This document shows, piece after piece, positions 7,835 through 34,235 of a stretch of DNA of 41,141 nt. The number at the start of each line of letters is the position of its first letter. Within the stretch, counting starts at the first letter, position 1. The notes below the pieces were generated by a model. It was not told the DNA's origin and ran no database searches. It was given only the letters and a program-made list of their open reading frames with translations. Source of the stretch: a virus (lineage: Duplodnaviria > Heunggongvirae > Uroviricota > Caudoviricetes). The stretch is taken from IMG/VR virus record IMGVR_UViG_2718218171_000006, positions 1 to 41,141 of that record. The stretch is one strand, 5' to 3'. Position numbers and translations under genes: made by a program.

Positions 7835-8475
7835 TTGTCGGTATACCTCTCTCGTTTGCTCAGTTGTTCAGGAATATGGTGCAGCAGCTCGCCGTCACCA
7901 CAGTAAATGGCGGCATGATTCGGCACCGATGAACCAAAACAGCACAGCAGCACATCGCCCGGCTGCGCCGCTGACAACGGCACCTGATACAGCCCTGTGG
8001 CCTCCAGATTATCCAGATAGAGATTCTGACCGTGACGCCACCAGTCATCCCCGCGATGAAAATCCGGCATCTCAATCCCCGCCAGATGATAAGCATCCCG
8101 GAACAGCGTGTAACAGTCCGTCACCCCGTGCTCAAAGCGCCGCCCGGTAAGATGCGGCACACAGCGGAATTTATGAATCTCACCCCGGCAGACCAGCCAC
8201 CAAGGCAAATCGCTCTGCACCTGCAGCCGCCTGTCAGCCTCACTCAGCCAGGGCAGACCACCGGGGTGGCTGTGGACCAGCGCCACAATCTCACCCTGCA
8301 TCTCTGCCCGCAGCCAGTCCTCCGGCGACATCCGGAAATACGCCTCCGGCTCACCGGAGATATTCACGCAGGGAAAATATCTTTCCCCCTCCGGCGTTCT
8401 CACCACGAAGCCGCACGACTCCGCTGGCGCACATCGCCGGGCGTGCGCCAGAATCGCTGATTCTGTCTGTGTCAT
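7732..8475 (-). CDS. K: Tail assembly protein K (JAB/MPN plus NlpC/P60 domains)
   Basis: Start placed at ATG 8475 (MTQTESAILAHARRCAPAESCGFV...), 247 aa; the ORF-track start at 8550 would overlap L. Confidence 0.8.
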   Translation of the reverse strand: MTQTESAILAHARRCAPAESCGFVVRTPEGERYFPCVNISGEPEAYFRMSPEDWLRAEMQGEIVALVHSHPGGLPWLSEADRRLQVQSDLPWWLVCRGEIHKFRCVPHLTGRRFEHGVTDCYTLFRDAYHLAGIEMPDFHRGDDWWRHGQNLYLDNLEATGLYQVPLSAAQPGDVLLCCFGSSVPNHAAIYCGDGELLHHIPEQLSKRERYTDKWQRRTHSLWRHRAWHASAFTGICNDLAAASTFV

Positions 8476-8479
8476 GGGA

Positions 8480-9178
8480 TTACTGCGAAAGTTTGTTAAT
8501 GGAAAGGAAGCCGCCAAAGTTGCCGACGTTATTGCGAAACTTACAACCACTCAGGCATTTGCTGCATTTATCCTTCGTGATATCGGACGTCGGCTGGTCA
8601 TATTCATCAGCGACAGCCGGACCGTGATAACCGCACTCATCACCGCGATAGGTCCAGGTGCAGGTATTAGCCAGCATGATGCGCCCCGGAAAAACAGCAC
8701 CGTCCGTTTCCGTCGGCGTGGACAGTACAAAAGAGGCACTGACCGCGCTCAGTTCGCTGCACTGCTCGATGCGCCAGCGGCTGATCACCTCCTGCTCCGG
8801 ATCGGCGTCACTGTTTCCGTTGACGAAGTTCACCGCATCCAGAAAACGGGCGTAAACCTTACGCCTGACCACCGTTCCGCCGACCAGACTCTGCAGGTCT
8901 TCCGCCATCCCGGTGACCATTCCGTGCAGGTTAGAAACCGTCAGTGTCGGACGGGCAGCACTGCCCTTGCCGTTCAGTTCAAATCCCGTCCCCTGAATGG
9001 GGTATGCCTGATACTGCCGCCCCTGCCAGGTAACCGGCTCACCTTTTTCGTTCTGCTCATTACAGAAAAAATAACGTTCACCACCGACCTCTGTCAGATC
9101 GATTTCCCAGAGCACCACCTGGGCTGACTGAGTAAGGCGTGTCGTCTCATGATGTGTTTCCTGTGGAATATCCTGCAT
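8480..9178 (-). CDS. L: Minor tail protein L
   Basis: 232 aa, same length and gene order as lambda L; C-terminal Cys cluster CSKCLSGCKF. Confidence 0.9.
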   Translation of the reverse strand: MQDIPQETHHETTRLTQSAQVVLWEIDLTEVGGERYFFCNEQNEKGEPVTWQGRQYQAYPIQGTGFELNGKGSAARPTLTVSNLHGMVTGMAEDLQSLVGGTVVRRKVYARFLDAVNFVNGNSDADPEQEVISRWRIEQCSELSAVSASFVLSTPTETDGAVFPGRIMLANTCTWTYRGDECGYHGPAVADEYDQPTSDITKDKCSKCLSGCKFRNNVGNFGGFLSINKLSQ

Positions 9179-26280: not shown

Positions 26281-27033
26281 CTATCTTGTCACTTTTCTCA
26301 ATTGCGATTCAGCATACGCTTCTTCCTGCCAGCACTTTGTAACCAGTTTATTAATAACGTCTGCATATCCTTTGTACCACTGATAATCCGTCAGGTCCGG
26401 TACCAGTTTCTGGACATGATGCCGCGCCAGTGTGGTTGGTAAACGGCTAAACCGGTTGCCATTGCAACGCCCACAAATCTTATAAACAGGCACACCATGA
26501 AGCCGGGTTCTTTTTTCATCCAGGACAATACCTTTACCCTTACACCCTCTGCACGCTGTGCTGACTTCTCCCTTACCATGGCAATGCTGACATAGTTCCT
26601 TCACCCACTCTTCCTTGATAACAGATTCCCCGCTTCTGGAGTGTTTCACCACTTCGCGCAATACATTATGAAATCCAGTACCAGCACAATGCTCACAGCG
26701 AGCCTTACTTGCCGCAGACCTGGAATAATCAGCAAAGGCAAAATTCACAAGGTAAGGGATGATCTGTAACCGGGTTTCTTCACTCAATTTGTTCAATGTC
26801 GGGTTATCCAGTGCCATCGCGTAATTGAGCAGACCTTCAATCGCAAATTGAGGATCCTGAACACCAACTTTTGCCAGGAATAAGGCAAACCCAAGCGGTG
26901 CTTTCGACTGCACCATCCCCTGCGCAGCCATCACATCCGTAATCGTTAAACCACCTGAGCCTGTCGCCGGTGCGTCATCGCTCAATTTTGGAGATTTTGG
27001 GGAGTAATATTTTGGTAAGGCTTCAAGGTTCAT
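26281..27033 (-). CDS. Late antiterminator Q-like protein (zinc-finger type)
   Basis: Start at MNLEALPKYYSPKSP...; Cys/His clusters CEHCAGTG, CQHCHGKG, CRGCKGKG, CGRCNGN; position immediately upstream of pR'/lysis genes. Confidence 0.75.
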   Translation of the reverse strand: MNLEALPKYYSPKSPKLSDDAPATGSGGLTITDVMAAQGMVQSKAPLGFALFLAKVGVQDPQFAIEGLLNYAMALDNPTLNKLSEETRLQIIPYLVNFAFADYSRSAASKARCEHCAGTGFHNVLREVVKHSRSGESVIKEEWVKELCQHCHGKGEVSTACRGCKGKGIVLDEKRTRLHGVPVYKICGRCNGNRFSRLPTTLARHHVQKLVPDLTDYQWYKGYADVINKLVTKCWQEEAYAESQLRKVTR

Positions 27034-27046
27034 GCTCGTTCTCCAC

Positions 27047-28042
27047 TTACGCCAGTACGCCAATTGCCAGCGCACGATCGATAAAACGAAATATCAGCTC
27101 CAGCTGAGAGCCATACTTCTCTTCAAATGCCACGGTATCCGCATGCAGCTCGTCGTGATGCTTTCTGCACAAAGGCAACACAAAGAGGTCATGCGCTTTT
27201 GTACCCATTCCACCCTGACCGTGGCCTATCAGGTGGTGGGGATCATCAGCAGGCTTTCCACAACATGCACACGGCTGTGTCTTAACCCAGCGCGTGTACT
27301 TTTCATTAACCCAGCGGCGACGTTTTGGGCGTAACATAAAAGACTCCGGCGACTCCGGATCCACTTTCAGCGCCAGCACCTTTTTCGCCTTATCCTGGAT
27401 GATGCTGGTGGCAGGAACCGAAGGCACAAGGTCACTTTCCCGGGTAACAGACGGCACAACAGGCTTCGGTAATCTCAGTGCCTTACGGGCTGCACTTTCC
27501 GGTAAGGCATCCGCCAGATCATTACGAATCAGCCACCAGCACAGTTCCGGCATTGTCACAACGTGACTGTCATCAAAACCGAGATCCCGACGCACAACAG
27601 ACAACACCCAGCGGGCACAGTTATCCGTTGCCATTGATTCCAGCCGTTCCGTGAACTGATCGCGCAGCTGGTTATCGCAGTGCCAGCACAGACGGATTGC
27701 ACCCGGCGCGTGTCGCATTGTGGTCATGTTCTCGCTGTGCCAGTCGGAATGAGGCCACTGGCAGCCTTTTTCACGAAGTAACCAGCTTTCAAGACATTCC
27801 ACGCCACCAGCACGACGGATCACTGCCTCATTGCGGAACACGGCCCGAACGGCAGGATCATCCGCCAGCGGTTGTGATGCCGCCGGAACGGCACCACTGG
27901 CGAAAGATGAATAACGCTCCGGCTCAGGCTCCAGCAGGACACGCCCCTGCATAAACAGGGGCATCAGCTCTGAACCTGGCCTGAACAATACGATCCCCAT
28001 ACGCGGGGCAATTTCAGGGGTCAGTAGTGCTCTCACGGTCAC
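27047..28042 (-). CDS. DUF968-family phage protein (YdfU-like) with C-terminal His/Cys cluster
   Basis: 331 aa; C-terminus CACCGKPADDPHHLIGHGQGG...CRKHHDELH; nin-region position. Confidence 0.55.
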   Translation of the reverse strand: MTVRALLTPEIAPRMGIVLFRPGSELMPLFMQGRVLLEPEPERYSSFASGAVPAASQPLADDPAVRAVFRNEAVIRRAGGVECLESWLLREKGCQWPHSDWHSENMTTMRHAPGAIRLCWHCDNQLRDQFTERLESMATDNCARWVLSVVRRDLGFDDSHVVTMPELCWWLIRNDLADALPESAARKALRLPKPVVPSVTRESDLVPSVPATSIIQDKAKKVLALKVDPESPESFMLRPKRRRWVNEKYTRWVKTQPCACCGKPADDPHHLIGHGQGGMGTKAHDLFVLPLCRKHHDELHADTVAFEEKYGSQLELIFRFIDRALAIGVLA

Positions 28043-30235: not shown

Positions 30236-30729
30236 TAAGCCCCCACGTAATTCCCTGACAGATACCACTCATCACCCGATACAGCTCGCTTGCTGCTTTT
30301 CTGTAAGCACTGCTCACGACGCGCCAGAAAATTGTTTCGTTCTGGCTGGGAGTGGCTTTCACGGAATGCCGCCATCCACACCGTTGCAGCACGACGGTAT
30401 AAGCCCCTGGACTCCAGTTCTTCAGCCTGGCGGGTCAGGCACAAAATCACCCGGGAATCGTTAGTGCCGACATAGAAATTGCGCACAGGTCTGGTTTCAC
30501 GAACTGGTTGTGGTTCCGGCTCCTGCGCTCTCTCAGTCAGGCGCGGGAAATGTCTGCGTGTATCTCCTTCACAACGGTGAGCCACACGCCCACTCTGACG
30601 TAACTTGCTTGCTGACTGCAGAACGCGCTGTCGTGAGTAACCTGCAAAAGCATCCGCAATGTCTCCGGAAGTACACCCCGGATGGACTTCAATGAATTTC
30701 TGAACTTCATTCAAAAGACTCATAATCAC
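30235..30729 (-). CDS. PerC-like regulatory protein (tentative)
   Basis: C-terminal segment LESRGLYRRAATVWMAAFRESHSQPERNNFLARREQCL resembles PerC/Pch-family proteins of EHEC prophages; recalled from memory. Confidence 0.35.
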   Translation of the reverse strand: MIMSLLNEVQKFIEVHPGCTSGDIADAFAGYSRQRVLQSASKLRQSGRVAHRCEGDTRRHFPRLTERAQEPEPQPVRETRPVRNFYVGTNDSRVILCLTRQAEELESRGLYRRAATVWMAAFRESHSQPERNNFLARREQCLQKSSKRAVSGDEWYLSGNYVGA

Positions 30730-31544
30730 CCCCTGAATCCTGCCGGGATCTGGCTGTAGTCCACGTTGTCGTAACTGGCTTTGAAGTACGGGTCCTCGCG
30801 TCTGGCTGCAGATACCGCAGGAACTTCCCAGGATTCTTCGAAATGACGATCCGGACCAAAGAACGTGACAGCCTGTTTCACAAATTGTGTGCCGCTGTTA
30901 CCCATCGCAGATACCCAGCCCGCGTAGCGTTTCACACCTTCCAGCATGGTTTCGGGGTTTACTCCCTCATTCAAACGGGCTTTCCAGGCTTTGAAGGCTG
31001 CAGATTTTGAATTGCCACCAGCACGTTTGGGATATGCCAGCCATGCCTGCTCAAACTCCGGAGAGTATTCCGGTCGGTTTGAACGAACTCGCACGGACTC
31101 ATCAACTGATGCACCAACAGCTATTGGTTCATTGACTGGTTCTTTGACTGGTTCAAAAGAGTGACTGGTTCTGGGTGAATCTCCTGCACTACCCCCTGGT
31201 GCAACTCCTGCACTACCTGGTGAATTTGCTGCACCAGATAGTGAATTATTTGCACTACCCCCTAGTGAATCTCCTGCACCATCCAGATGAAGGAGATAGA
31301 TATTACTTGAGTTACCTTTTTCACCTTTCCGGGTGACTTTTTTTACCAGCCCGGACTCACAGAGGGCCGCAATATGATTCATCACAGAACGTTTGCTAAT
31401 CTCGCACTGATCAGCGATATGCTGATAGCTGGGCCAGCACTCGCCCTGATCGCTGGCATTATCAGCCAGCTTAATCAGAACCAGTTTTCGCAATGGATTT
31501 CCCACTCGAATTTTCATCGCTTTAACCATCAGCTCCATACTCAT
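30726..31544 (-). CDS. Replication initiator (O-like; N-terminal HTH, internal iteron-encoding linker)
   Basis: N-terminal HTH (WPSYQHIADQCEISKRSVMNHIAALCESGLVKK); linker encoded by direct DNA repeats; position after cro/cII. Confidence 0.6.
   Translation of the reverse strand: MSMELMVKAMKIRVGNPLRKLVLIKLADNASDQGECWPSYQHIADQCEISKRSVMNHIAALCESGLVKKVTRKGEKGNSSNIYLLHLDGAGDSLGGSANNSLSGAANSPGSAGVAPGGSAGDSPRTSHSFEPVKEPVNEPIAVGASVDESVRVRSNRPEYSPEFEQAWLAYPKRAGGNSKSAAFKAWKARLNEGVNPETMLEGVKRYAGWVSAMGNSGTQFVKQAVTFFGPDRHFEESWEVPAVSAARREDPYFKASYDNVDYSQIPAGFRG
31131..31325. repeat. Iteron array plus AT-rich segment inside the O-like gene (putative origin of replication)
   Basis: Five ~21-23 bp direct repeats of consensus GTGAATCTCCTGCACTACCCC at 31175..31284, three TTGACTGGTTC repeats at 31131..31172, AT-rich stretch 31285..31325. 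Confidence 0.55.
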
Positions 31545-31777
31545 GCAGCACCTCCGAGATGCTTCATGTTTTTTCCGGAGCGAAAGGCTATAAGCGGCAT
31601 ACTGATGCGGTAATTACGGCCCAGCGGTTCACAAATCACCTTCTGACATTCACGGTCAACCAGGCTAACACGTAGAACATGCCCTGCAGGCGTGGTGTAC
31701 CACTGCCCAACTGTAGGAATTGATGTTTTTTTACGCTGAAGCAAACGGCAAATATTGAGGAGCAACGGATTAAGCAT
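31541..31777 (-). CDS. Hypothetical protein
   Basis: 78-aa ORF with 4-nt overlaps to both neighbours; no family recognised. Confidence 0.4.
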   Translation of the reverse strand: MLNPLLLNICRLLQRKKTSIPTVGQWYTTPAGHVLRVSLVDRECQKVICEPLGRNYRISMPLIAFRSGKNMKHLGGAA

Positions 31778-32606
31778 GGCGATGCCCTCCGCTGATATTC
31801 AGGAGACGGTGAATATGAAAATTAGCCTTATCCGCCAGACGAATACGTTCAGCCTGCAAGTTAAGAAGGGTTTCTACCAGAACCTGATGCGCCTGCGGAT
31901 CCGAAAGAGTTACCTTGCGCAGAGCACGTAGTGCAGTTGTTACATAACTGAGTTTATGTAAGTCTTCATCATTCAGACGAGAGAGGGCTGGGACAGTAGC
32001 CATGATGGCAGCCTCCGTATGCAATGGATAACTTCCACCACCGGAAACGCCAATTTCGCTGGTGGTGAACTGAGCAGGGTTGGCGTAACCGGCGCATACG
32101 GAAACCGGCGCACCTTTCGGTGCCCCCACCCAGCCCACCATAATTTGGGTATAGCTGAGTTGTAGCAACAAAAAAGACGCTAACGCGCCAATTGTCGCCG
32201 TATGCAATTCCAGGACGCCAATCCCGACACCCGCTTTATAAGGTGCCTGAACAGTGTAACGTCCCGGAATGGCAGAATCAATGTGCTGGTGGTCCTTCAC
32301 ACTCAACAAAATCACGCCTGAATTTCCACAAAGGACTAAAGCACTCATGCGGGTAGTCTTTGCGAAGATAGATAACGCGCTGTGTTTCTGGCTCCCAGCG
32401 AATAACATGGACATAAAGCCCTCTTCCGTCACGAAACCAGCGGTTAAGTTCCTGCACAACTCGCCCCCCACAGTCAGGTAAAGTTCTCTGTGGTTACTTA
32501 CAGCAAGGTGATTTGGTAATCTGCATTCATGCCGTAACAACAGGTGTTCAGCGACGCTGACTACCAGCTGTTGCGACAAACGGTTATTTGCCGTTAAACT
32601 GTTCAT
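31770..32606 (-). CDS. Hypothetical protein (between cII-like and O-like genes)
   Basis: 278-aa ORF, 4-nt overlap with the cII-like gene; no motif recognised. Confidence 0.45.
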   Translation of the reverse strand: MNSLTANNRLSQQLVVSVAEHLLLRHECRLPNHLAVSNHRELYLTVGGELCRNLTAGFVTEEGFMSMLFAGSQKHSALSIFAKTTRMSALVLCGNSGVILLSVKDHQHIDSAIPGRYTVQAPYKAGVGIGVLELHTATIGALASFLLLQLSYTQIMVGWVGAPKGAPVSVCAGYANPAQFTTSEIGVSGGGSYPLHTEAAIMATVPALSRLNDEDLHKLSYVTTALRALRKVTLSDPQAHQVLVETLLNLQAERIRLADKANFHIHRLLNISGGHRHA

Positions 32607-33166
32607 GCGTTAGTTTCTCCACAGACACAAAACGCCACGACGCCCGGAGCTGCACACTCGCGGGCGTCACTCTTTTCTGGAGCGCAAAAGATTTTGTAGA
32701 CCAGTGCTGCATGCTCCTGGAGCTTCGAAATTGACAGATACAACTCATCATTAATTGCTGTCTGCTCGTGTGGCTCCACTACCCCATCTTCGATTGCCGA
32801 ACGAATCTGCTTTGAGTAACTCCCGATCTGTTCGATGACTTCCAGCAGGCGCTGGTTGATATCGGCGTTCTCTACTTCCTCAATTTCAGGAAGCGATACA
32901 AACACCCCACCAGCAGACTGTGCGACAGCATCCGCAATGTAGTGAGTGCCAGCCGCGCGCTGTAAAATCATTGCCCATCCCAGCGGGAAAATCTGATCGC
33001 CATCTGCACGAAGGCGGTTGAATAAAGCGTTCTCTGTTACATCCAGCCACTCAGCAGCTTCAGCGTAACCCCCCGGCAACGCCGCGATAGTTTTTCTGAC
33101 AGCTTTCACGTACCACTCAGGCTGTTTTTCTACTTTCCAGTGATGCTTACCCACGGTTAGCCTCAT
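32603..33166 (-). CDS. CII-like regulator (YdaT / phage 186 CII family, tentative)
   Basis: 187 aa directly downstream of the Cro-like gene; central segment resembles 186-CII/YdaT HTH region; recalled, not searched. Confidence 0.45.
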   Translation of the reverse strand: MRLTVGKHHWKVEKQPEWYVKAVRKTIAALPGGYAEAAEWLDVTENALFNRLRADGDQIFPLGWAMILQRAAGTHYIADAVAQSAGGVFVSLPEIEEVENADINQRLLEVIEQIGSYSKQIRSAIEDGVVEPHEQTAINDELYLSISKLQEHAALVYKIFCAPEKSDARECAAPGVVAFCVCGETNA

Positions 33167-33398: not shown

Positions 33399-33488
33399 AC
33401 AATATGTACCTCCGGTGTACATATTACATGATTGAGATGAACCTTCAAGATACTTGTACCTTAACGGTACAAGGGTTTTAATTTCGTT
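33399..33488. promoter_or_regulatory. Immunity operator/promoter region (OR; divergent pR and pRM)
   Basis: Inverted repeats ATGTAC-N7-GTACAT (33404..33422) and CTTGTACC-N5-GGTACAAG (33453..33473); minus-strand TTGAAG-16-TAATAT overlaps the first; plus-strand TTGTAC...TTTAAT ends ~8 nt before the cI ATG. Confidence 0.55.
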
Positions 33489-34163
33489 ATGAAAACAGTC
33501 CATGACATCCGGCGGTCTAACGCCAGAAAACTGAGAGATGGTGTTGGCGGGAATTCTTCCTTTGCCACCATGATTGATCGCGAGCCAACCCAGACCAGCA
33601 GGTTTATGGGAGATGGTGCAACTAAAAATATCGGTGACAGCATGGCACGGCACATCGAAAAATGTTTCGACCTGCCTGTCGGATGGCTTGATCAAGAACA
33701 CCAGACAACGAACATCACAAAAAAACCTGATGTTTCAATCACTAACAAGCAAATAACGTTAGTCCCTGTCATATCATGGGTACAGGCCGGAGCATGGAAA
33801 GAAGTTGGCTATTCTGAGGTTGATTTGAGCACAGCAGAAACTTATCCCTGCCCTGTACCCTGTGGCGAAATGACTTATATCTTGCGGGTGATTGGTGATT
33901 CAATGATTGATGAATACCGCCCGGGAGATATGATTTTTGTTGATCCTGAAGTACCTGCCTGCCACGGTGACGACGTTATTGCATTGATGCACGATACAGG
34001 TGAAACCACCTTTAAAAGGTTGATAGAAGACGGAACACAACGTTATCTCAAAGCATTAAACCCAAACTGGCCAGAGCCTTACATTAAGATCAACGGTAAT
34101 TGTTCCATAATTGGTACTGTGATTTTCTCAGGAAAACCAAGGAGATACCAAATTAAAGCCTAA
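33489..34163 (+). CDS. CI-type prophage repressor with C-terminal S24 (LexA-like) autopeptidase domain
   Basis: 224 aa; N-terminal HTH; C-terminal ILRVIGDSM Ser-Lys dyad motif; divergent from cro. Confidence 0.85.
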   Translation: MKTVHDIRRSNARKLRDGVGGNSSFATMIDREPTQTSRFMGDGATKNIGDSMARHIEKCFDLPVGWLDQEHQTTNITKKPDVSITNKQITLVPVISWVQAGAWKEVGYSEVDLSTAETYPCPVPCGEMTYILRVIGDSMIDEYRPGDMIFVDPEVPACHGDDVIALMHDTGETTFKRLIEDGTQRYLKALNPNWPEPYIKINGNCSIIGTVIFSGKPRRYQIKA

Positions 34164-34202: not shown

Positions 34203-34235
34203 TTGACAATGTACCCTTGAGATACATAATGTACC
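34203..34235 (+). promoter_or_regulatory. pL-like early-left promoter with overlapping operator (OL)
   Basis: TTGACA(34203..34208)-17 nt-ATAATG(34226..34231); spacer contains ATGTAC-N7-ATACAT, one mismatch from the OR repeat. Confidence 0.5.

Follow-up and report, generated by a model that had tools for sequence, protein, structure and literature searches.

The window analyzed here, a stretch of 41,141 nucleotides (nt) covering positions 1 to 41,141 of IMG/VR record IMGVR_UViG_2718218171_000006, is an SfV/e14/CPS-53-like lambdoid prophage of Escherichia coli. Between its CII-like gene ymfL and its replication initiator gene rep lie two open reading frames (ORFs) of 278 and 78 amino acids (aa), which a preliminary description had left unassigned and had considered as possibly either a non-canonical helicase-recruitment or replication-accessory module or unrelated cargo of the early operon. 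Our analysis indicates that the ymfL-initiator interval is an RNA immunity cassette of the immI/P4 type flanked by small genes, and not a pair of replication proteins, a reading to which we assign a probability of about 85%. The suggestion of unrelated cargo thus came closer to the truth, the interval being in our reading a regulatory (immunity) cassette. The cassette genes are all encoded on the minus strand, in the order ymfL, YmfM-like leader, DUF4222, predicted promoter, IsrK-like small RNA (sRNA), C4-type RNA, target sites a2 and b2, ORF77, ORF78 and rep:

32603-33166, minus: ymfL, CII-like (Pfam Phage_CP76, E 8.5e-15)
31770-32606, minus: 278-aa ORF (SfV orf37), stop-free from the ymfL stop to 8 nt beyond the ORF78 start
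32457-32606, minus: YmfM-like leader (codons 1-50 of the 278-aa ORF), its ATG overlapping the ymfL stop (ATGA)
32278-32457, minus: 59-aa DUF4222 gene starting with GTG, its frame being -1 with respect to that of the 278-aa ORF (Pfam PF13973, E 9.5e-14; PGAP coding sequence)
32253-32281, minus: predicted sigma-70 promoter, with -35 TTGATT at 32276-32281 (overlapping the DUF4222 stop), a 17-nt spacer, -10 TACACT at 32253-32258 and +1 at 32246
32170-32246, minus: IsrK-like sRNA, equivalent of P4 seqA (Rfam RF01394, 58.9 bits against a gathering score of 50)
32215-32221 and 32198-32205, minus: target mimics a1 and b1 in IsrK
32176-32189 (stem) and 32170-32175 (U-tract, U6), minus: intrinsic terminator at the isrK 3' end, from a terminator scan
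32058-32145, minus: C4-type antisense RNA, equivalent of P4 CI and Gifsy-1 STnc1160 (Rfam RF01695, 80.7 bits against a gathering score of 45)
32094-32101 and 32080-32086, minus: C4 loops b' and a'
32047-32053 and 32015-32022, minus: C4 target sites a2 and b2 on the mRNA
31770-32003, minus: ORF77, the last 77 codons of the 278-aa ORF, with its own Shine-Dalgarno sequence GGAGG 8 nt upstream
31541-31777, minus: ORF78 (SfV orf38), 78 aa (phrog_1153, E 1e-41)
30726-31544, minus: replication initiator gene rep (SfV orf39), HTH_36/DnaD_N

Both ORFs are present on the minus strand, and their placement between a CII-like gene (ymfL, Phage_CP76) and an iteron-containing initiator gene (HTH_36/DnaD_N, repeats at 31175-31279) was confirmed. 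The overlaps had been described as 4 nt long; this applies to ymfL and the 278-aa ORF (ATGA) and to ORF78 and rep (ATGA), but the 278-aa ORF and ORF78 overlap by 8 nt (ATGCTTAA). Nor are the two ORFs unassigned, as they equal SfV orf37, annotated 'immunity region', and SfV orf38, annotated 'unknown', with identical extents.

Polymorphisms were compared among 37 distinct haplotypes out of 80 IMG/VR loci, and the RNA cassette was aligned in 33 distinct variants. The 278-aa frame is open in all 81 related loci, as 278 to 387 codons. RefSeq annotation by PGAP contains no 278-aa ORF; instead, it gives the DUF4222 gene in the other frame (32278-32457) and an 'ash family protein' (31770-32315). The ORF is composite: codons 1-50 form the YmfM-like leader, codons 51-110 are the off-frame of DUF4222, codons ∼110-201 run over the RNA genes, and the last 77 codons, the only ones under protein-level purifying selection in this frame, are ORF77. 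Since the middle third consists of two Rfam-confirmed RNA genes, part is DUF4222 read off-frame and coding behavior is confined to the last 77 codons, the 278-aa ORF is no protein gene in the usual sense.

The isrK and C4 matches lie on the strand of the ORF and within the 278-aa frame, and both were present in all 13 variant loci tested, while a search with Rfam found neither in e14 of K-12. The C4 match spans the full model (1-87). All 243 cells of the 27 pairs that make up its stem and two hairpins were paired across the variants, with eight compensatory pairs, compared with 35-49% in slid controls. The predicted transcription start (32246) coincides with position 1 of the Rfam isrK model, and both promoter hexamers are invariant in the 33 variants, with three singleton substitutions elsewhere in the stretch. 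An in-frame AUG at 32139-32141 corresponds to the AUG at +107 of Gifsy-1 orf45. When the long RNA was folded, b' and a' paired in cis with b2 and a2 (z -4.5).

The target sites vary together with the RNAs. Site b2 overlaps the Shine-Dalgarno sequence of ORF77 (GGAGG, 32012-32016), 8 nt before the ATG at 32003. Between b' and b2, 98.3% of the cells were paired and seven of the eight pairs were compensatory (slid controls, 27-53%); between a1 and a' together with b1 and b', 99.6% of the cells were paired and 11 of 15 pairs were compensatory. The 33 variants fall into at least seven specificity types, in which b1 of IsrK (8 nt), the 12-nt loop of C4 that contains b', and b2 at the Shine-Dalgarno site (8 nt) change together, as in these examples:

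window type: b1 GCATACGG, b' CCGTATGC, b2 GCATACGG
second type: b1 GATCAAGG, b' CCTTGATC, b2 GATCAAGG
third type: b1 CACCAAAG, b' CTTTGGTG, b2 CACCAAAG
fourth type: b1 GTTATCGG, b' CCGATAAC, b2 GTTATCGG

The a1/a'/a2 trio occurs in two states, TTGGCGT/ACGCCAA and GTGGAAA/TTTCCAC; the type switch at a'-a2 was read by eye, MAFFT having misplaced a 3-nt gap. The case for an immunity cassette is built on direct observations: matches to RNA families, covariation both within the RNA structure and three ways across the target sites, and the identification of the frames under purifying selection. In the E. coli prophages of IMG/VR, the types (at least seven) sit on near-identical flanks, DUF4222 being 98-100% identical, and they combine with at least three downstream cassettes, namely ORF77 and two Rha-type versions. 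From the sequences, this distribution looks like a diversifying exchange of RNA immunity specificities.

ORF77 showed 12 synonymous and three non-synonymous polymorphisms (codons 121-181 of the 'Ash' ORF, the last ∼60), a pattern by which it is a real small gene under purifying selection. Its family is narrow: a search of 1.8 billion representatives gave only nine matches, of which those that are non-trivial are 46% identical, and it has no match in Pfam. In sister prophages, a Rha-family gene (Phage_pRha, Pfam E 5e-31) occupies the ORF77 slot, which is by analogy the antirepressor position, the positional equivalent of icd/ant in P1, epsilon in P4 and anrP in Gifsy-1. That ORF77 is a homologue of Icd was considered and rejected, as there is neither sequence similarity nor a Pfam match.

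The small genes upstream of the RNAs proved to be arranged in two frames. Among the 37 haplotypes, each of the 13 polymorphisms in the DUF4222 region leaves the DUF4222 protein unchanged but alters the residue encoded in the 278-aa frame, and therefore DUF4222 is the selected gene there; the ratio of non-synonymous to synonymous change (pN/pS) relative to Citrobacter braakii is 0.24. Its AlphaFold2 (AF2) model (pLDDT 85) is an SH3/Tudor-like barrel. The leader is in-frame 40-44% identical to the 'FRYERR'-type YmfM of other Enterobacteriaceae. Constraint on it appears to be weak, with 11 synonymous and 17 non-synonymous polymorphisms within E. coli and a pN/pS of 0.61 relative to C. braakii, in contrast to the N-terminal part of the K-12-type YmfM (11 synonymous, two non-synonymous). 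The idea that the leader is a frameshifted remnant of K-12 ymfM was dropped, the leader being an in-frame homologue of another YmfM subtype. A programmed -1 frameshift from YmfM into DUF4222 was also rejected: no slippery heptamer is present, in K-12 the sequence AAGGAG followed by 7 nt and TTG precedes DUF4222, and one haplotype carries a stop in the DUF4222 frame just upstream of the GTG.

The same dual coding is seen in K-12, where ymfM, the published cell-division inhibitor SfiC, shares its DNA with a DUF4222 gene in the -1 frame (NC_000913.3, 1203822-1204180, corresponding to window 32278-32606). Codons 1-60 of K-12 YmfM showed 11 synonymous and two non-synonymous polymorphisms, while codons 61-112 showed none and eight, respectively, in the YmfM frame, the same changes being eight synonymous and no non-synonymous in the DUF4222 frame. 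In K-12 derivatives PGAP calls DUF4222 only. Since the pBAD-ymfM clone of Ansari et al. includes DUF4222 residues 1-53, the experiments cannot tell which product blocks FtsZ rings, and the UTI89 filamentation fragment, being of the K-12 type, cannot separate YmfM from DUF4222 either. No link between DUF4222 and ymfM was found in the papers searched.

ORF78, which immediately precedes the initiator gene and is coupled to it in translation, is a real small gene, with 18 synonymous and six non-synonymous changes in codons 27-65. It has no match in Pfam. In its AF2 model (pLDDT 82), an N-terminal helix is followed by a beta-beta-beta-beta-alpha-beta barrel with the element order and register of DUF4222, and Foldseek matched it to DUF1653-like barrels. 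The alignment of ORF78 and DUF4222 by hhalign was in register with the predicted folds at a non-significant E of 0.081, and the DUF4222 protein matched the ORF78 family phrog_1153 with an E of 0.008. A link by sequence was therefore rejected, leaving fold topology as the only link; according to the models, ORF78 is probably a distant paralogue of DUF4222. The helix (residues 4-18, LLLNICRLLQRKK; residues 1-18 correspond to 31724-31777) has no counterpart in DUF4222, and the N-terminal ∼20 residues of the ORF78 family are variable, with at least three versions.

We propose that the cassette works along the lines of the P1, P4 and Gifsy-1 models (PMC4825925, PMC8201110), from which promoter use, RNA processing, repression and its effect on replication are inferred. 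Of the transcripts from the cassette promoter, some would end at the IsrK terminator, while those that run on past it would yield the C4 RNA. C4 would then pair with a2 and b2 and mask the ribosome-binding site of ORF77. ORF77, ORF78 and rep each have a GGAGG, and their overlaps of 8 nt and 4 nt couple their translation; by way of this coupling, to which Rho polarity probably adds, the block should extend to ORF78 and on to the initiator. IsrK, which bears the same target sequences, may compete for C4 or remodel the long transcript. As a palindrome scan of the window detected no cI operator near the cassette promoter, the RNAs may be constitutive in the lysogen. Given that a Rha antirepressor-like gene replaces ORF77 in sister prophages, the cassette would form a second, RNA-based layer of immunity that gates both the gene in the antirepressor position and the replication gene. 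Such a type-specific layer, with at least seven classes in very common E. coli, Shigella and Shiga toxin (Stx) prophages, would bear on induction and Stx production.

Systems of this kind are already known, namely C4 of P1, CI of P4 and IsrK of Gifsy-1, together with the Rfam families and the 'immunity region' annotation of SfV orf37. As in P4, an isrK-like RNA is followed on the same strand by an RNA of the C4 clan, upstream of a gene in the antirepressor position, small ORFs and a replication gene; the P4 layout is seqA - CI RNA/seqB - seqC upstream of epsilon, orf151, orf106 and alpha. The Rfam isrK and C4 models both match P4, in P4 as in the window a legacy protein ORF over the RNA matches Pfam Ash, and the block that our model places on the initiator would be the outcome that P4 reaches for alpha. 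As a satellite, P4 differs in having a PLE operon of its own and a primase-helicase (alpha); the window cassette is placed inside the PR operon of a lambdoid prophage, where it follows cro and the CII-like ymfL and precedes an initiator of the HTH_36/DnaD_N type. P4 acts by premature transcription termination (PMC4825925), from which the mode of action in the window may differ.

The immI region of P1 and P7 likewise has a1 (7 nt) and b1 (8 nt) upstream, C4 with a' and b', and a2 just after C4. In the window b2 ends 11-12 nt before the start of a small coupled ORF; in P1 it ends 11 nt before icd, and icd and ant1 overlap by 4 nt. The specificity types co-vary, as between P1 and P7. In contrast to P1, the small ORF of the window (ORF77) bears no relation to Icd, it is followed by ORF78 and the initiator gene where P1 has Ant, and the window promoter carries no C1-type operator. 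The isrK-orf45 (STnc1160)-anrP unit of Gifsy-1 shares the IsrK match with terminator and the AUG at +107, which opens a same-frame ORF over the C4-like RNA, and the cis fold of the window RNA resembles the inactive 'structure A'. In Gifsy-1, these genes stand as a unit of their own beside antQ, and orf45 does not extend as far as anrP; in the window, one frame runs unbroken from ymfL through ORF77, and the genes coupled to it lead on to a replication gene. In e14 of K-12 (ymfL - ymfM, encoding the SfiC division inhibitor - ymfN/oweE), ymfK, ymfT and ymfL lie upstream and the initiator gene downstream as in the window, the YmfM ORF starts at the ymfL stop and DUF4222 is embedded in it; however, the isrK/C4 cassette, ORF77 and ORF78 are missing, and only 9 nt separate the YmfM stop from the initiator ATG. 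To the known systems, the window adds a cassette that adjoins a replication gene in a lambdoid PR operon; of value are the catalogue of specificity types, the correction concerning 'Ash' described below, the stop-free frame with unconstrained amino acids and the dual coding of YmfM and DUF4222.

Several points weigh against this interpretation. The cassette lies inside the PR operon and not in a separate immI operon, so that PR transcripts also cross it. Use of the cassette promoter is a prediction read from the sequence, with hexamers that match the consensus at 8 of 12 positions and fall under the threshold of the scan tool, and control of the initiator by C4 is deduced from the gene overlaps only. 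ORF77 shows no similarity to Icd, Ant or AnrP from which its function could be inferred. Finally, the 278-aa frame is seemingly kept open by selection, and translation over the RNA genes may matter, which the simple P1 model does not predict.

The middle of the frame could alternatively encode a real protein domain, Ash, fused to ORF77 or Rha. Residues 117-209 of the 278-aa ORF (31980-32258) match Pfam Ash (PF10554) above the gathering score with an E of 1.8e-16, three PHROGs carry the annotation 'transcriptional regulator' (phrog_3960, phrog_821, phrog_995), an 'ash family protein' is called by PGAP, and a 2022 survey of Stx phages, among them Eru6, Eru7 and Eru9, treats 'Rha/Ash' as a two-domain protein with an Ash part of unknown function (PMC8951638). 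We nevertheless consider this very improbable. Substitutions in the segment fall on codon positions 1, 2 and 3 in the numbers 47, 47 and 38 (31 synonymous, 101 non-synonymous), by which measure it is under no protein-level purifying selection, i.e., not protein-coding; the same nucleotides pass two Rfam gathering thresholds with strong covariation. In P4 (NC_001609.1), the ORF of the legacy 'cI gene product (AA 1-137)' within 8168-8692 matches Pfam Ash as well (E 4e-16), and the matching segment (aa 22-85, ∼8330-8521) spans the Rfam C4 match at 8420-8507, which is the known CI RNA; an isrK-like match at 8615-8692 (seqA region) lies upstream of this ORF. For orf45, Hershko-Shalev et al. reported conserved nucleotides and variable amino acids (PMC4825925). 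Judged by these comparisons, Ash is, at least in the window and in P4, the translation of an RNA cassette, and the Pfam family appears to have been founded on the translation of an RNA gene. 'Ash family protein' annotations, Pfam Ash and 'Rha/Ash' fusions, including those of the Shiga-toxin phages Eru6, Eru7 and Eru9, would then in large part translate the IsrK and C4/CI RNA cassette. A different account accepts the RNA genes and explains the open frame as a ribosome relay: on PR transcripts the 278-aa frame would be translated from the ymfL-coupled ATG, and it would be kept open to carry ribosomes and not for its protein. Ribosomes would pass the embedded off-frame gene, the IsrK terminator and the C4 gene and reach ORF77, ORF78 and rep; on these lytic transcripts they could melt the terminator and the C4 fold and so override the RNA block in cis, while transcripts from the cassette promoter, lacking the ymfL-coupled start, would stay untranslated and fold into the repressing RNAs. 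In the 33 cassette variants, stops are absent from the 278-aa frame and occur at 23 distinct positions in the other two frames (P about 9e-5), although such statistics are approximate for related sequences in a GC-rich, stop-poor region. Indels in the variants are multiples of three, and in C. braakii a compensated +1/-1 indel keeps the frame. We also scanned genome contigs for DUF4222 and obtained 31 distinct DUF4222 DNAs from many genera. Where valine or leucine codons would give rise to a stop in the 278-aa frame if their third base were a purine, these had T in 88 cases, C in 40 and a purine in none, compared with G in 37, A in 2, T in 13 and C in 25 elsewhere in DUF4222; however, G is also absent where only a third-base A would make a stop, which suggests other constraints. 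In 29 of 30 cassette-free loci, the YmfM-frame ORF opens at the ymfL stop and closes upstream of the initiator ATG at a distance of exactly 9 nt, regardless of initiator type; in Gifsy-1, expression of anrP, the gene in the antirepressor position, requires translation of the upstream orf45, which shares both the frame and the AUG (PMC4825925). Thus, the frame appears to be kept stop-free by selection even though its amino acids are unconstrained, which suggests an unbroken translation chain from ymfL to rep, into which the cassette would have been accommodated in frame in the window type. As a weak YmfM-type protein function could account for part of this conservation, we offer the relay tentatively and hold the odds to be somewhat against it; if it is true, ymfL-YmfM-rep is a conserved translational chain with DUF4222 dual-coded inside. 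The stop-free frame and the dual coding provide leads on translation-coupled control and on which product is the SfiC inhibitor.

The remaining alternatives assign the interval to replication. When every ORF from cro through Rz, as well as those of the left arm, was scanned with Pfam, none matched P, DnaC/IstB, DnaB or a primase, so that the earlier observation that the right operon lacks a P-, DnaC- or DnaB-like gene holds at the Pfam level from cro to the lysis genes. This lack, and the coupling of the ORFs to the initiator gene, with a DUF4222-fold gene always directly upstream of the initiator in relatives, would fit a non-canonical helicase-recruitment or replication-accessory pair in place of lambda P. 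Yet the 278-aa ORF carries no ATPase, primase or loader signature, its middle consists of RNA genes with neutral codon-position usage and a further part is the off-frame of DUF4222; sister phages carry Rha in place of its 3' part, and e14 of K-12 lacks most of it. For the 278-aa ORF this explanation is largely refuted, and for the pair as a whole we give it hardly any credence; a replication-accessory role is conceivable for the small DUF4222-fold proteins only. DUF4222 and ORF78 might, independently of the RNA cassette, be accessory factors of the initiator, for example in origin binding or recruitment of the host helicase: they adjoin or overlap at least five initiator types invariantly across genera, ORF78 overlaps rep by 4 nt, and both are predicted SH3/Tudor-like barrels, a fold used for protein docking as in the C-terminal domain of UvrD/PcrA. 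Against this, the K-12 fragment with ymfM and DUF4222 causes FtsZ-ring loss and filamentation, which points to host takeover instead; we regard this role as unlikely. By default, DnaB would be recruited through direct use of host DnaB-DnaC by the initiator. The only signal of a loader comes from the C-terminal domain of the initiator (aa 145-249), which matches PHROGs with members annotated as 'DnaD-like helicase loader' or 'primosomal protein' and has no Pfam or PDB relative by sequence or profile. SfV/e14-type phages of this kind have an initiator but no detectable helicase or loader.

The initiator gene contains three iteron-like direct repeats of ∼39 nt (31175-31279) and a 12-nt tandem pair (31125-31148), which encode a linker rich in Gly, Ser and Ala; from its sequence, this region is the probable origin. 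The last 24 residues of the initiator (REDPYFKASYDNVDYSQIPAGFRG; window 30726-30800) are common to three initiator types of 272, 313 and 330 aa; either a mosaic junction with the yfdN/PerC gene that follows or a docking peptide that has been conserved might explain this shared C-terminus. Among 32 genome loci of many Enterobacteriaceae genera, at least five unrelated initiator N-termini follow the fixed 9-nt joint after the YmfM stop, and in cassette-free genome loci DUF4222 extends 11-92 nt into the initiator gene before reaching its stop. This comparison suggests that recombination between the ymfL-YmfM/DUF4222 block and the initiators takes place at a fixed joint.

Related sequences are common. 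E. coli TUM1886 is 100% identical to the window over 3.3 kb, phage SfV, Escherichia phages Ayreon and 2H10 and Stx2c phages match it as well, and part of the region is matched by 3104 of 20,395 E. coli records. The initiator gene is followed on its 3' side by PerC/yfdN, Dam, a protein with a LexA DNA-binding domain, RusA, KilA-N, DUF968, a Q antiterminator and the lysis genes. Upstream of ymfL lie the regulatory genes:

33489-34163, plus: ymfK (CI), Peptidase_S24
between ymfK and ymfL: ymfT, Cro-like

The palindrome TTGTACC-N5-GGTACAA occurs twice in the cI-cro intergenic region (33404-33422 and 33454-33472), one copy being perfect and the other having three mismatches, and a third, degenerate copy lies just downstream of cI (34209-34227). 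The total of four matches in the window, including one at 30384-30402, was equalled in 4 of 100 shuffles. By sequence and position, the copies around cI are likely CI/Cro operators. The Q-type antiterminator (26281-27075, minus; Pfam Antiterm) also matches a DnaJ-type CXXCXGXG zinc finger. The IsrK cascade of Gifsy-1 ends in the expression of the toxic Q-like protein AntQ, and a link to the Q antiterminator of the window is possible.

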